Of a stretch of 64,000 bases of DNA, positions 12,840-16,970 are shown one piece after another; within the stretch, counting starts at the first letter, position 1; every line of letters begins with the position of its first letter. The DNA is from an uncultured Gammaproteobacteria bacterium (GTDB lineage: Bacteria; Patescibacteriota; Patescibacteriia; SG8-24). Below the pieces are notes generated by a model that searched no databases, was not told where the DNA came from, and was given only the letters and a program-made list of their open reading frames with translations. The position numbers and the translations under genes are program-made. Location of the stretch: assembly GCA_964491475.1 (NCBI GenBank), contig CAZBFO010000003.1:136766-200765 (forward strand), given 5' to 3'.

Positions 12840-15800
12840 TCAGGAGGTTGTTCGGGCTTTCTTCAGGTAGCCTCGGACGGCCTGGGCCATCTTGGCGTAG
12901 CCGTCTCCTTTCAGGAGGGAGATGAAATTATCGTGGCCGCCGGTCTTGGCGTTGATGCCCGGGTCCAGAACCTTATATTCCTGCTGGAACTCCGCGAGCG
13001 GACGAAGCGTCTCCCCGTCGAAGGCGGCCTGCTCGAACGACTCCATGGCCGTGAGCGCGCTGCCTCCTTCCGAGAGCACCCAGTTTTCCACGCCGATGCC
13101 GCCGATGCCGCCATCCTCGAACTTCTTGTACGCGCCGGCTTCCTTGAGCAGCTTCTTGGCGAGGACGATGTTGGCGACCACGCGCTCGTGGGCCTCGTCG
13201 CCGAGATCGCGGCGTATCGCATCCAGCCGGTCGCTGACGGCATCATGCGACTCGTACTGCGCCACTTCGGACTTGTCGGCGAATCCGACGTCCACGTCCG
13301 CAGTTTCGCTGCCGAGCTTGGCACCGAGCAGGCGCAGCTGGTCGGGACGATGCCCCTCGTGCTTCTTTCCGCCGAGCCTGGCAACGAGCGACTCGTTCAG
13401 CGACGCGGCCTTGGCCATGTCGGCGGCGTTGAGCTTCACGATGAAGTCGAAATCGTAGGAACCCGGAACGTTGGTGCCGCGGCTCGAGGAGCCCGTGTCG
13501 TAGATTTCGGCGTTCGTCAGCAGCTCGTCGAATCCCGCGCTCGACTCGATGCCCTGCGCGGCGAGTTCGCCCAAAACGGCTCCTCGCAGCTCCGCGTTCA
13601 TGCCCTGGACCGACGCTCTTTCCTTGCGTTTGGCTTCCATCACCTCGCGCAGCGCGTCCGCATGCGCGGGGGCATTCTCAAGCGATGATTCCTTCATGCG
13701 GAACGGCATTCCCTCGGTGCCTCCGAAGAAGCGCTGGCGGTAATCGTCGAATTTCTCGGGGGTGACGAGGATGTTTCCTTCTTGGTCGACCATCGGGACG
13801 TAATGGCCGTTGGCGACAACGTCCATGATGCGGCTGTCGAGCCGTTTCGGTTCCCGCATCAGCCTTTCGGTCACGCCGATGGCGTCGATTTCGGTTGAAG
13901 GAAGTCCGGTCCTCACGCCGAAATGGCGTTCGCCCACGACGCCGGTGGGAAACAGTTCAAGACGGGCCTCGCGCTTGCGTGCCTCCTTGTTGAGCGCGGC
14001 CGGATCATCCTTGGCGGACGTCTCCTGGAACTGGCCGCGATCGCGCACGACCATGAAGAGGTCGCCGTACTCGCCGACGGGAGAAGCCGCCAATGCCCCG
14101 GCGAGGCCGGCATCGGCGTCGCCTGGCAGGATGCGGGCGACGTCGGTGTCGAGGGGCGTCCGGTCGGAATCCGCGCTCGCCCCCAGGAACTCCTTCGCGA
14201 CCGAACCGTTCTCGAGGATGTTGCGCAGGAAGCGGTCGTTGAAACCCTTGAGCAGGTCACCCGCCTTCACGTCGATGCGCCCCGAACCGCCAGCGACCCA
14301 CTCCCGGTTGCGGCGATCCGCCTTTACGCCGGACGCATCCATCCTTTCGAGCGCGGATTCTATGGTTTCGAGTCCGAGCGGCTTGAGGTACATTTCGGCG
14401 ACGCGGCCGCTCAACGACTGACCTTCCTTTGCCGAAAGGCTTTGACGCAAGTTTCCGTAGACGTCGGCGACGTCTTTCTTTCCGGAAGCCGGCTGATCGT
14501 CCCGGATCCGGCCGGCCAACGACGTTTCGTGCAGCCGTTTTATCTTTTCGACGGTCGATTCGAAACTTTTGCGTTCGTCCTCCGAAAGCGAGTCCAGCCC
14601 CTCGGCATCCACCTTGTCCATCAGCCCCTGACCGTCCCGAAGCGTCTCCATGTACCCGCGCAACGACGGATTGCCCGAATCCAGGTGAATGCTGACCAAG
14701 TCCTTGTAGATGGTGAGCATGCGACCGCGGTGGCTTTCGGCGCGGAGCGTGGGACTGCAGTGCTCGGCCGAGGTCAGGGCGTCGAGTTTTTCCTTCGGAT
14801 AGAGGACCTCGAATACCTTGTTGACCTTGCCGACAAGCGGCAGCTGGTTGCGCTCAAAAATCCCTTCGACTTGGGTGAAGGCGGCTTCCGGGTCTTCCGC
14901 CGAGCGCAGCGTGCCGAGCAGTTCGCGGGAAAGGCGGCGCAACGAGGCTGACGGCGAGGTGGCGATACGCTCCGCCGCGTTCACGAGCTTGGTGAGCCTC
15001 GGTCCAGCCTCGGCCGACTCTGCCAGGCGTTTCAGCGCCCCGAGCAGGTCCGGATTCGTCAGATCCCCGCCGGCCATGCCGGCATCGACCATCTTCCACA
15101 CGTCGTCCTCGGCGAACTGCAGGTCGCGCTCCGAGACTATGCGCTCAATCTGCTCCACGGTATTCCGGTGCATCCCGCCCGCTTCGAGGGATTTGGCGAT
15201 GGCCGTTTTTGCCTGCGCTTCGGACACCTCAATGGCGCCGTTCGCGATGTTGAAAAGCAGCAGCTTCGGCTGCCGGTCGATGACCGTGTCTATGGCTTCC
15301 GGCGTGAGCGCGCCGATTCTCTGCAGCTGTTCGATTTTCTTGTCGTAGAGCTGGTTTTTGTCCGCCATGGAGAGCAGCAGTTCTGTCCGCTGACCGGCAT
15401 CGAGGGTGATGCCGCCTTGGTCCGCCGCAGTGAGCACGGCATCCGGTTGCATGAGCATCACTTTATCCACGACGTCGGGCGTGAAGCTCTGCGCCAGCTC
15501 GGGCATCTTCTTCAGGAGGAACGCGTCTTTTTCGAGGCGGAGCTCTCCCTTCTTGGCCATCGAAAGGAGCATGTTCTTTCGCTGTCCTTCGGACAGGACG
15601 TTGCGCCAACCGTCGGCTTGGCGCACGACGGCGTAGGGGTCACGCGCGATGGTTGCGTCGATCATTTGCGTCCGCTCCTTTTCCGGCATGGCGGCGATCT
15701 CTGCCGGGAAGGCTTCTGCGTGCTCGACGACGTTTTCCGGCTTGTTCGCCCTGTAAGCGTCAAACAGGGCCCGGCGCGCTTCGGGGCTCATGTCTTTGTC

Positions 15801-16970
15801 CTTGGGCAAGTCGTTCCCGCTTAGCGACAGCTCTGCCAGGACCGACCGTTTTGACTCCGGCAGTCGCGCGATCGCTTCCGTCAGCTGCAATCGTTCTTCC
15901 GGGGTCCATCCCTGGCTGCTGTATTGGCCGGTTGCCTGCACGAGCAGCGCGTCGGGAGCGCGCTGACCGAGGGCGTCGATTGCCGCCTGTTTTTTCTGTT
16001 GCCAGTCATCGCCTGGCGCGTCGTTCAGGGCCTTGTCGACCAAATCCCATGCCACGCCCCGATCGCCGGGAGCGCCGTCGTCCAAGCTCCTGAAGAGCGC
16101 CACGCCGTCGGCGCCGGAGGCGAGGGCTTCCCTGAAGCTGGCACGCACCTTTTCGGCAAGACGTTCCGTGCTCGCGCGGGGACCGTCCACTCCGATCTCG
16201 CGGGTGCGGCGTTCGAACCGCAGCATTCGGTTGGCGGCGGCGATGGGATCGCTTTCGGCCTGCGTCTCGATTCGTCTCGATTCCGCCATGACGTATTGCC
16301 GGTTGAAGCTCTGCCGTTTTTCGAGCAGGGACGCTTCGTCCATGCTTTCTTCCCCGAGCGCGTTCTGGTATGCGGCCAGGGCGCGGTCCGGGTCGTCGCT
16401 GGCGAGTTCTTCGGCGGCGCCGTTCATGAATTCCTTTCGCAGCTCGTCGACCCGTATGCTTTGCAGGGCGTCGGGCGACGACAAGAACGCGGCAGGGTCG
16501 GTCCTGTAGGCTTCCTGCAGCGAGGCTAGGGCGGCACGCACGCGCTCCTGCGCCTCCGGGCTGGCTTGGCTGAAGGCGGTCTCGTCGAGCGCGCCGTCAG
16601 GGCCGACGAAGGCGGATACTGCTTCGTCGAGATCCCCTGCAAGGCGCGAAAAGTCACGCCCTTTCTCGGGCGCCGTTTCCGTCGTTTCGAGCTCTTGTTT
16701 CAAGGCTTCCTCGGCCTCCTTTGCTTCGGTGACGATGCTGTCGAGTGCCGCGCTCGTTTCGGGATCGACATTCGCCTCGAATTGGGCCGCGACGCGCGAC
16801 GTCATTTTCTCGCCCGTCTCCTGGAGTTGATGCACCGCGTCATCCGCGCGTTCGACGATTTGCGCGGGATCTTCGGGAAGGGACGGTTCGGTTTCCCCGG
16901 CCCGCTCCGTGTCGCCTTCGGGATGCCTCTCGCGCTCCGGGAGCGGTTGCCCTTCTCTTGCAGCTGCCAT
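12840..16970 (-). CDS. giant acidic alpha-helical protein (1376 aa) with a C-terminal minimal nucleotidyltransferase-like motif
   Basis: Single uninterrupted ORF. The ORF track starts at TTG 16976; the first ATG is 16970. The composition is E/A/L/R-rich. The Pol-beta-type NTase signature TGSSSRGTNVPGSYDFDFIV (GS-x10-DxD) lies near residue 1130, and TADVDVGF follows about 50 residues later. All overlapping ORFs are shadows. Confidence 0.65.
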   Translation of the reverse strand: MAAAREGQPLPERERHPEGDTERAGETEPSLPEDPAQIVERADDAVHQLQETGEKMTSRVAAQFEANVDPETSAALDSIVTEAKEAEEALKQELETTETAPEKGRDFSRLAGDLDEAVSAFVGPDGALDETAFSQASPEAQERVRAALASLQEAYRTDPAAFLSSPDALQSIRVDELRKEFMNGAAEELASDDPDRALAAYQNALGEESMDEASLLEKRQSFNRQYVMAESRRIETQAESDPIAAANRMLRFERRTREIGVDGPRASTERLAEKVRASFREALASGADGVALFRSLDDGAPGDRGVAWDLVDKALNDAPGDDWQQKKQAAIDALGQRAPDALLVQATGQYSSQGWTPEERLQLTEAIARLPESKRSVLAELSLSGNDLPKDKDMSPEARRALFDAYRANKPENVVEHAEAFPAEIAAMPEKERTQMIDATIARDPYAVVRQADGWRNVLSEGQRKNMLLSMAKKGELRLEKDAFLLKKMPELAQSFTPDVVDKVMLMQPDAVLTAADQGGITLDAGQRTELLLSMADKNQLYDKKIEQLQRIGALTPEAIDTVIDRQPKLLLFNIANGAIEVSEAQAKTAIAKSLEAGGMHRNTVEQIERIVSERDLQFAEDDVWKMVDAGMAGGDLTNPDLLGALKRLAESAEAGPRLTKLVNAAERIATSPSASLRRLSRELLGTLRSAEDPEAAFTQVEGIFERNQLPLVGKVNKVFEVLYPKEKLDALTSAEHCSPTLRAESHRGRMLTIYKDLVSIHLDSGNPSLRGYMETLRDGQGLMDKVDAEGLDSLSEDERKSFESTVEKIKRLHETSLAGRIRDDQPASGKKDVADVYGNLRQSLSAKEGQSLSGRVAEMYLKPLGLETIESALERMDASGVKADRRNREWVAGGSGRIDVKAGDLLKGFNDRFLRNILENGSVAKEFLGASADSDRTPLDTDVARILPGDADAGLAGALAASPVGEYGDLFMVVRDRGQFQETSAKDDPAALNKEARKREARLELFPTGVVGERHFGVRTGLPSTEIDAIGVTERLMREPKRLDSRIMDVVANGHYVPMVDQEGNILVTPEKFDDYRQRFFGGTEGMPFRMKESSLENAPAHADALREVMEAKRKERASVQGMNAELRGAVLGELAAQGIESSAGFDELLTNAEIYDTGSSSRGTNVPGSYDFDFIVKLNAADMAKAASLNESLVARLGGKKHEGHRPDQLRLLGAKLGSETADVDVGFADKSEVAQYESHDAVSDRLDAIRRDLGDEAHERVVANIVLAKKLLKEAGAYKKFEDGGIGGIGVENWVLSEGGSALTAMESFEQAAFDGETLRPLAEFQQEYKVLDPGINAKTGGHDNFISLLKGDGYAKMAQAVRGYLKKARTTS

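Follow-up and report, generated by a model that had tools for sequence, protein, structure and literature searches.

The locus examined here raises the question of what a single giant open reading frame (ORF) encodes and what its product does. The ORF lies at positions 12840..16970 on the minus strand of a 64,000-nucleotide stretch (the window) of contig CAZBFO010000003.1, from an assembly labelled as an uncultured Gammaproteobacteria bacterium and placed by GTDB in the Patescibacteriota. An initial annotation, made from the DNA letters alone, described a protein of 1376 amino acids (aa) with a minimal nucleotidyltransferase (NTase) signature near its C-terminus. The analysis places the giant protein on a new branch, so far uncharacterised, of an enzyme superfamily that is itself known, and its architecture is both new and widespread. 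As a whole, the results are best explained by a real, probably cytoplasmic 150-kDa multidomain NTase enzyme acting on a hydroxyl acceptor, a reading that is on balance probable.

The giant gene and its C-terminal domain

The ORF list gave an ORF of 1378 codons (12840..16976, minus strand) counted from its first TTG. From the first ATG at 16970, the giant gene comprised 1376 codons followed by a TGA stop codon at 12840-12842, which confirmed the 4.1-kb ORF of the initial annotation. The 150-kDa product (isoelectric point, pI, 4.9) contained 12.9% A, 10.1% L, 9.7% E, 7.8% D, 7.7% G and 7.6% R with a net charge of -63 and a computed pI of 4.90, so that its description as highly acidic and Ala/Glu/Leu/Arg-rich was borne out; residues 1-200 were the most acidic (net charge -28). 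The hydropathy scan also agreed with the annotation in that no signal-peptide-like N-terminal hydrophobic stretch and no transmembrane segment were present in the giant protein (maximum Kyte-Doolittle 19-residue mean of 1.06 against a threshold of 1.6). This absence of Sec-type signals is the sole basis on which the giant protein is placed, probably, in the cytoplasm. No Shine-Dalgarno (SD)-like sequence was seen before the ATG at 16970, again as annotated.

Two intact orthologues were compared with the giant gene, namely P0002 (locus L001, 1374 aa, 57% identity) and P0173 (locus L004, 1369 aa), the latter with 58% identity over the full length and 71% over the C-terminal module. In codon alignments with both, every segment of the giant gene including the N-terminus showed higher identity at codon position 2 than at position 1 and far lower identity at position 3. 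For residues 1-320, the identities at positions 1, 2 and 3 were 0.56/0.61/0.36 against L001 and 0.58/0.64/0.30 against L004, while the NTase segment gave 0.79/0.86/0.59 and 0.82/0.85/0.42, respectively. This pattern indicates purifying selection on the giant protein over its whole length. The guanine-cytosine (GC) content of the gene was 0.79 at third codon positions compared to 0.43 at second positions. The initial annotation had allowed for a GC-driven artefact, to be recognised by interruption of the ORF in related genomes. The frame was uninterrupted in most related genomes, and loci with a GC content of 23-63% contained relatives whose ORFs of 1200-3000 aa were intact, which together with the substitution pattern ruled out such an artefact. 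The giant ORF is a real gene.

The C-terminal residues 1100-1376 (12843..13673, minus strand) were modelled with AlphaFold2 (AF2) on a nine-sequence alignment, and the model had a pLDDT of 91.7 and a pTM of 0.89. In it, a long helix at the N-terminus is followed by a core of mixed beta-sheet and then by a second, helical lobe, the layout of a two-lobed domain of the Pol-beta superfamily. A Foldseek search of the PDB with this model produced 75 matches at E ≤1e-3, and 50 of the 50 matches listed had the Pol-beta-type NTase fold that the initial annotation had proposed (best E 1e-7, probability 1.00). The top 14 matches were all to the Archaeoglobus class I CCA-adding enzyme (E 1e-7 to 1e-5, probability 1.00, TMq 0.55-0.60, 15-18% identity), followed in rank by NF90/NF45, poly(A) polymerases (PAP), OAS1/OAS3, Cid1, CdnC and CdnB. 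The NF45/NF90 DZF entries among the 50 listed matches are non-catalytic.

The catalytic signature TGSSSRGTNVPGSYDFDFIV was identified at residues 1159-1178 (13437..13496, minus strand) with G1160, S1161, R1164, T1166 and the putative metal carboxylates D1173 and D1175. The initial annotation had recognised this motif correctly and had placed it near residue 1130 with a GS-x10-D-x-D spacing; the spacing is GS-x11-DxD (G1160, S1161, D1173-F-D1175-F), which we take to be that of OAS1. The sequence TADVDVGF, residues 1223-1230 (13281..13304, minus strand), had been put forward as the source of a third carboxylate about 50 residues later. Its carboxylates lie 50-52 residues past D1175, and the residue concerned would be D1227, located inside a predicted strand (model residues 123-133), rather than D1225. 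Conservation was counted from an hmmalign alignment of 206 family members, with denominators that differ by column. D1173 and D1175 were each kept in 189/190 members and D1227 in 191/192, so that the acidic triad was retained in homologues, while D1225 was found in only 170/192. Conservation of the loop was 189/189 for both G1160 and S1161, 190/190 for R1164 and 186/190 for T1166. A further motif in the second lobe, AKKLLKEAGAYKK....GGIGGIGVENW at residues 1271-1297 (13080..13160, minus strand), contained K1272, Y1281 and E1295, each invariant in 192 of 192 members. The K1272-x8-Y1281 pair presumably corresponds to the Lys and Tyr that contact the triphosphate in poly(A) polymerase and class I CCA enzymes. 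With this helical second lobe the domain is predicted to be two-lobed and not the "minimal" NTase first described.

Overall, the hG[GS] loop with a [DE]h[DE]h strand, a third h[DE]h carboxylate and a superimposable core, by which Pol-beta NTases are recognised, were all found. The model supports the assignment of residues 1100-1376 to NTases of the class I CCA-adding, poly(A) polymerase or OAS type, and judging from residue conservation the domain is very probably catalytically active. A non-catalytic scaffold, either a pseudoenzyme such as NF45/NF90 DZF proteins or MiD51 or the product of an artefact ORF, would be in keeping with the DZF entries among the fold matches and with the lack of any database annotation. 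This explanation is effectively refuted by catalytic residues that vary hardly or not at all among about 190 members over 23-63% GC, by the purifying selection and by intact orthologues in hundreds of genomes.

The best structural match, the class I CCA-adding enzyme of Archaeoglobus fulgidus (PDB 1R89, 4X4U, 2DVI and 3OUY), shares with the modelled domain a two-lobed head and neck, and the invariant Lys/Tyr pair (K1272, Y1281) was found in the neck-like lobe. Archaeal class I CCA enzymes presumably have in common with it GSxx[KR]GT-x6-DxD, a third Asp on a later strand and, in the helical lobe, K-x8-Y followed by a Gly-rich/E motif. However, the identity was just 16-18%, there was no similarity to any PDB chain at the level of hidden Markov models (HMMs), and neither body and tail domains nor membership of the class I sequence family was found. 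The chain ends at residue 1376, directly after the neck-like lobe, and the model of 277 aa compared with targets of 430-440 aa gave a TMt of 0.37-0.41. Unlike the class I CCA enzyme, the NTase of the giant protein forms the C-terminal end of a bacterial chain of 1376 aa and follows a conserved module of 440 aa.

Sequence-level matches to the NTase domain were below threshold. Weak Pfam NTP_transf_2 matches (E 0.005-0.035) covered the GS..DxD segment in 6/26 members, a PADLOC oligonucleotide-cyclase model matched only 37 residues of the same segment (E 0.0087), and Pfam SMODS matched 1/26 members (E 0.012). No Pfam tRNA_NucTransf2 match was found in the 26 members. Searches of PDB sequences by phmmer and by profiles, with the full protein, the module, the NTase domain or the alpha/beta domain, produced nothing meaningful, and no RNA-binding or double-stranded RNA-sensing domain was recognisable in the giant protein.

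The cyclase and SMODS matches bear on a possible role in signalling, in which the giant protein would make 2'-5' or cyclic oligonucleotides upon sensing of a ligand by its middle or N-terminal region, for example in anti-phage defence, as OAS, cGAS and CD-NTase enzymes do. OAS, CD-NTases, PAP and Cid1 are template-independent enzymes that use nucleoside triphosphates (NTPs). OAS1/OAS3, CdnC (6P80), CdnB (7LJO), PAP and the Cid1 terminal uridylyltransferase have the same fold class and catalytic motif as the giant-protein domain (E 2e-5 to 2e-4, TMq 0.43-0.59), with OAS1/OAS3, CdnC and CdnB reaching a TMq of up to 0.57, and the OAS1-like motif spacing points the same way; the OAS/cGAS analogy of the initial annotation was reasonable at fold level. 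However, all of these had worse E values than the CCA-adding enzymes, no effector, Cap or receptor genes were conserved near about 80 family loci, no PADLOC system rose above noise, and the gene stands among housekeeping genes without a CBASS-type operon beside it, rather than in a defence island. Such a signalling function is very unlikely. Membership of CBASS was rejected, as an effector/Cap2/Cap3/HORMA operon was missing at the approximately 80 loci and SMODS and PADLOC matches were below threshold. Membership of the MNT (MNT-HEPN) family was likewise rejected because of the second helical lobe, the N-terminal fusion of 1100 aa and the lack of a HEPN gene nearby.

The shared module and its HD-type relatives

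A word-indexed search with the full protein returned only the giant protein itself and P0002. An exhaustive HMMER search with query residues 177-1376 against 1.84 billion cluster representatives (50% identity) identified 961 proteins at E ≤1e-3, of which 634 had E ≤1e-30. All but a handful of close relatives aligned only to query residues ~485-1195 (protein residues ~661-1371) with 35-45% identity, and the boundary was set by 150 representatives that aligned from query residue ~485, which is residue ~661 of the protein. The shared C-terminal module of ~710 aa thus delimited comprises a helical domain, an alpha/beta domain and the NTase. It is nearly always the C-terminus of proteins of 1200-3000 aa with varying N-termini, and ended no more than 30 residues from the C-terminus in 144/154 members that looked full-length. 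The initial annotation had called the combination of a giant protein with an NTase unusual; instead, about 1000 clusters share this architecture and form one family. Scans of the protein and its relatives with Pfam, NCBIfam, PHROGs and PADLOC showed no model that covers the family, the only matches being sub-threshold ones to NTP_transf_2 or cyclase models. No viral copies were present in IMG/VR viral contigs, and literature searches found no paper describing the family. The named members, from Uhrbacteria, Parcubacteria, Collierbacteria and the "Patescibacteria group", were all annotated as hypothetical protein.

Some loci departed from this arrangement. In L032 (4290-8115) the gene was split into two ORFs at the boundary between the middle module and the NTase, and in L085 (552-3774) it was split inside the NTase just after the GS motif, with the same break in 5 contigs. 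These splits could be frameshifts, assembly errors or genuine splits. In L041, L044, L056, L081 and L072 the frame ran far beyond the NTase (up to >4600 codons, off the end of the locus), so that the module is not always C-terminal.

The middle of the module was modelled with AF2 on a 52-sequence alignment of residues 640-1105 and the model had a pLDDT of 90.0. Residues ~640-895 were all-helical and residues ~897-1085 formed an alpha/beta domain with about eight strands. The description of the protein as mostly alpha-helical therefore held for the first of these regions, and not for residues 897-1085 or the NTase core, which were predicted to be alpha/beta. The all-helical first half of the module, residues ~661-896 (14283..14990, minus strand), contained the conserved motifs SPS (672-674), NQLPLVGK, SP (739-740), D757, S765/N767/S769 and R887.

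The alpha/beta domain, residues 897-1085 (13716..14282, minus strand), contained a nearly invariant constellation of polar residues. Conservation was 197/199 for K908, 194/199 for E927, 198/199 for both D936 and T938, 193/199 for D941, 199/199 for D943 and 197/199 for E1005, and 192/200, 198/200, 196/200 and 196/201 for H1016, R1020, T1021 and Y1057, respectively. Since conservation of this degree is expected of catalytic or ligand-binding sites, these residues probably form a second such site, and the NTase signature is, contrary to the initial annotation, not the only catalytic-looking feature of the protein.

Profile searches with the alpha/beta domain produced no matches. Among the fold matches, none of which was significant, ADP-ribosyltransferases (ARTs) were a recurring theme. 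Those in the PDB were DarT1 (8BAQ; E 0.66, probability 0.51, TMt 0.38), CteC, Thermus DarT (7OMX/7OMV), tankyrase-2 (TNKS2) and PARP12. In BFVD the middle module matched phage polyvalent proteins, an ART-PolyVal-like protein and PARP-like 100L. When compared by eye with a verified PARP1 sequence, LLK908G-x8-NILENG, D941-T-D943 and x-E1005-L-F follow the order of the motifs on ART strands beta1, beta2-3 and beta5; the canonical H-Y-E and R-S-E residues of ARTs are absent. Alignment of the alpha/beta-domain profile to the PARP1 catalytic domain with hhalign was negative (probability 0.3%), and no Pfam ART family matched any of 26 members. An ART identity of this domain is a weak lead.

A sister architecture was found in 13 relatives (P0194-P0207) that matched the module HMM only at positions ~7-440, which correspond to the helical and alpha/beta domains. 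These proteins end in a different domain of 190-230 aa that replaces the NTase. The 13 C-termini share EHT, LHD[IL]GKP, QHEYT, DQD and D(A/G)GSYT, an H..HD..H..D pattern, and Pfam HD matches, with E values of 2e-4 (22.0 bits, exactly at the cut-off), 0.0054 and 0.15, were marginal but consistent. One HD-type gene (L084, 10001-14635) was located co-directionally among genes for CysRS, MgsA, cytidylate kinase (Cmk) and an M16 peptidase. Class II CCA-adding enzymes, GlnD and the enzymes that heal RNA ends pair NTase with HD activity. The joining of one middle module to either an NTase or an HD domain suggests that the substrate of the module bears a nucleotide or a phosphate. The known enzymes that combine these two chemistries, namely class II CCA-adding enzymes, GlnD and RelA/SpoT, serve as an analogy only: there the two are partners in one chain, whereas here they are alternatives in separate proteins, and no sequence or fold evidence of common descent with the giant family was found.

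The alternation of NTase and HD on one middle module mirrors the uridylyl-transferase/uridylyl-removing pair of GlnD. Together with the intact NTase active site, it is in line with a protein "writer" of the GlnD/GlnE type, which would transfer AMP or UMP to a protein that the middle module binds, with the HD-type sisters as "erasers". The best structural matches were, however, to RNA-specific NTases and not to GlnE/GlnD or kanamycin-NTase types, and no candidate target gene was linked to the family at about 80 loci. A writer of this kind is quite unlikely. GlnE/GlnD membership as such was rejected, as no Pfam GlnE/GlnD match was found and the HD domain of the sisters replaces the NTase rather than accompanying it; the GlnE analogy of the initial annotation thus received no direct support.

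Distribution, the small upstream ORF and the proposed function

A tblastn scan of one genome per GTDB species showed that relatives are encoded in at least 393 species genomes. About half of the best 80 of these 393 genomes were titled as Patescibacteria lineages (Zambryskibacteria, Moranbacteria, Magasanikbacteria, Peribacteria, Gracilibacteria, Komeilibacteria, Gottesmanbacteria and others) or carried generic labels of metagenome-assembled genomes (MAGs). The other half or so were gut "uncultured Bacilli" MAGs with ~31% identity and a GC content of 23-45% (median 27%). The nearest relatives were groundwater or environmental MAGs, among them two with a GC content near 62-63% (L001, L005) and one with 51% (L004). 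On these similarities, the giant protein is a member of a large, so far unnamed family typical of Patescibacteria (the candidate phyla radiation) and of gut "Bacilli" MAGs. Many small-genome MAGs that carry relatives (e.g. L005, L012 and L019-L022) are labelled "uncultured Gammaproteobacteria", "Micavibrio" or "Saccharibacteria", and these labels look unreliable. One MAG carries two family loci.

Upstream of the giant gene, a 49-aa basic ORF that the initial annotation had missed, MDQQRIRAAWLKFSEKMRSLRAKQAEIVKRFSKKKDDEQVEKLRNDLKN (pI 10.3), was identified at 16973..17122 on the minus strand, with its ATG at 17120-17122 and its TGA at 16973-16975, which ends 2 nt ahead of the giant-gene ATG at 16970. 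An SD-like GGAAGG, by consensus resemblance only, lies 8 nt upstream of the small-ORF ATG (17131..17136, minus strand). The same small ORF was found in the same place in L001, with an ATGA overlap, and in L004, with TGA 2 nt before ATG, and its codon-position identity between the window and L004 was 0.78/0.82/0.35. Small ORFs of 52-60 aa also adjoin the giant-gene start, or run into it, in L007, L010, L014, L018, L019, L026, L032 and L042. Among 11 such ORFs, 8 were basic with a pI of 9.6-11.4, and four close and seven distant sequences aligned in hhalign over 45 columns (probability 89.5%, E 2e-6). The gut "Bacilli" loci showed no such small ORF. A TATAAT-like box was seen by eye in several low-GC loci, no more than 20 nt upstream of the small-ORF ATG, a position that suggests the small ORF as the first cistron. 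The giant gene is probably translationally coupled to the small ORF, to judge from their spacing, and such coupling may account for the missing SD. The 49-aa protein is a likely partner or regulator of the giant protein.

In the proposed mechanism, the giant gene would be co-transcribed and translationally coupled with the 49-aa basic protein, and the fast-evolving acidic N-terminus would provide a scaffold or serve in targeting, in a manner specific to the lineage. An NTP would be bound by the GS loop (G1160-S1161) together with K1272 and Y1281, two metal ions would sit on D1173, D1175 and D1227, and a nucleoside monophosphate would be moved to a hydroxyl acceptor that is bound or processed by the preceding module. 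The acceptor may be an RNA 3'-OH, in which case the reaction would be template-independent tailing or end repair. This acceptor is favoured on two grounds, namely that the closest structural matches act on RNA 3' ends and that the HD-type alternative is reminiscent of the healing of RNA ends; by analogy with these enzymes it is a possible, still tentative choice.

Several results weigh against an RNA-directed housekeeping enzyme. The giant-protein family has no characterised homologue, and the family profile matched no solved NTase in the PDB at sequence level at E ≤10. TM-scores to CCA enzymes, NF45/NF90 and CdnB were all 0.55-0.60, so that the fold search hardly tells RNA-tailing enzymes apart from synthases of oligonucleotides or cyclic nucleotides. 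The body and tail with which the class I CCA enzyme binds the tRNA acceptor stem are both missing from the giant protein, and fold searches of the middle module against the PDB and BFVD gave no significant match. The family is patchy and not universal, its N-termini evolve quickly, and a gut "Bacilli" MAG contains three tandem paralogues of 1166+, 1415 and 1406 aa (L077, 487-12586). Finally, clustering of ORFs from about 80 family loci showed no neighbour family common to more than 6 loci, which places the family outside any conserved operon, the small ORF excepted. The patchiness, fast-evolving N-termini, tandem paralogues and unconserved neighbourhood fit proteins of conflict or host interaction at least as well as housekeeping RNA enzymes.

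These features bring in a host-directed effector or toxin, in which the module would be the enzymatic warhead of an episymbiont or parasite and would nucleotidylylate a host protein or tRNA, as do DrrA/SidM and MenT-type enzymes. In this scheme the variable N-terminus would see to delivery or targeting, and the small protein encoded upstream would act as a chaperone or confer immunity. The restriction of the family to Patescibacteria and gut MAGs of 23-45% GC, the divergence of the N-termini ahead of a conserved C-terminal module, the tandem triplication in L077 and the variable genomic context are consistent with an effector. So are the small coupled upstream ORF, which recalls antitoxin, immunity and chaperone genes, and the weak ART-like and phage "polyvalent protein" fold matches of the middle domain. 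However, the 154 full-length-looking members all lack an N-terminal hydrophobic segment, a signal peptide and any secretion domain that could be recognised, and no secretion-system or immunity genes recur near about 80 loci. Polymorphic toxins usually have conserved N-termini and variable C-termini, the opposite of the giant family; moreover, the gut "Bacilli" clade is without the small ORF and the setting is one of housekeeping genes. A host-directed effector is unlikely, and the enzyme acting on a hydroxyl acceptor is retained as the preferred explanation.

A further, more speculative reading, to which we give a low probability, is that the module is a new bifunctional enzyme modifying the ends of nucleic acids (or proteins) and specific to ultra-small host-dependent bacteria. 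Its middle domain would have a divergent ART-like or else novel catalytic fold with a K/DTD/E-type site; this domain would be combined with a class-I-CCA/OAS-like NTase "writer" or an HD "eraser" under the control of the 49-60-aa partner. Such an enzyme and might act on host or own tRNA or RNA ends in episymbiosis.

A large part of bacterial diversity is patescibacterial, and in these bacteria a function is known for only about half of the genes. The giant gene represents about 1000 sequence clusters without a Pfam or NCBIfam model, and genomes of <1 Mb retain it at a cost of 4-9 kb each. The analysis turns a "hypothetical giant protein" into a testable enzyme with an intact predicted NTP-using active site of named residues, a second invariant site in a confidently modelled domain, an NTase-to-HD swap and a small, likely partner ORF. 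The family would be a new branch of the CCA/PAP/OAS enzyme clade if RNA or a host molecule proves to be the acceptor, and could then bear on how symbionts with reduced genomes maintain or manipulate RNA.

N-terminal region and genomic context

The N-terminal residues 1-420 (15711..16970, minus strand) formed an acidic Ala/Glu-rich region with a pI of 4.5 that is fast-evolving and common only to the closest orthologues. Amino acid identity to the two orthologues was 38-40% for residues 1-320 compared to 67-72% in the C-terminal module, and distant relatives aligned only from about residue 500-575 or about residue 660 onward. Self-alignment identified three divergent repeats of ~65-70 aa at residues 421-620 (15111..15710, minus strand), just N-terminal of the conserved module, with a consensus like ..ID.VI.R.P.......G...L...Q+..LLLSMA.K..L and scores of 71, 71 and 57; shuffled sequences scored no higher than 51, with their 99th percentile at 41. 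The AF2 models span residues 640-1105 and 1100-1376 only.

The neighbours of the giant gene in the window were a convergent class II aminoacyl-tRNA synthetase (aaRS) gene (11410-12780, stop codon at 12778-12780) and an M16 peptidase gene at 17319-18602 on the plus strand. Between the convergent aaRS and giant genes, 9 nt past the end of the latter, lies a hairpin AAAAACGACCC-ttgtctgaa-GGGTCGTTTTT at 12800..12830 with a perfect stem flanked by A and T runs. It looks like a bidirectional intrinsic terminator shared by the two genes. The automatic consensus scan for promoters and terminators missed it, probably since its 9-nt loop exceeds the 8-nt limit. With its aaRS and M16 peptidase neighbours and a terminator of its own, and with the HD-type gene of L084 among CysRS, MgsA and Cmk, the setting is like that of a housekeeping gene. 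In both the window and L084 the giant gene adjoins an aaRS gene and has an M16 peptidase gene within a few kb (8572-9951 and 16583-17848 in L084), which may be coincidence.

A 535-aa ORF at 17010-18617 on the minus strand was considered as an upstream operon partner of the giant gene and rejected. No Pfam family matched it and the M16 peptidase gene overlaps it on the plus strand, and it was therefore read as an antisense shadow. It is an example of the long spurious ORFs that occur in sequence of 62% GC.

The remainder of the window was ordinary chromosome with genes for RRF, aaRS, a MurD-like ligase, a DEAH helicase, ABC transporters and a P-type ATPase, and a tRNA cluster. This cluster, at 20427-22125, consisted of four tRNA genes (Thr-GGT, Tyr-GTA, Thr-TGT and Trp-CCA), all with an encoded 3'-CCA.

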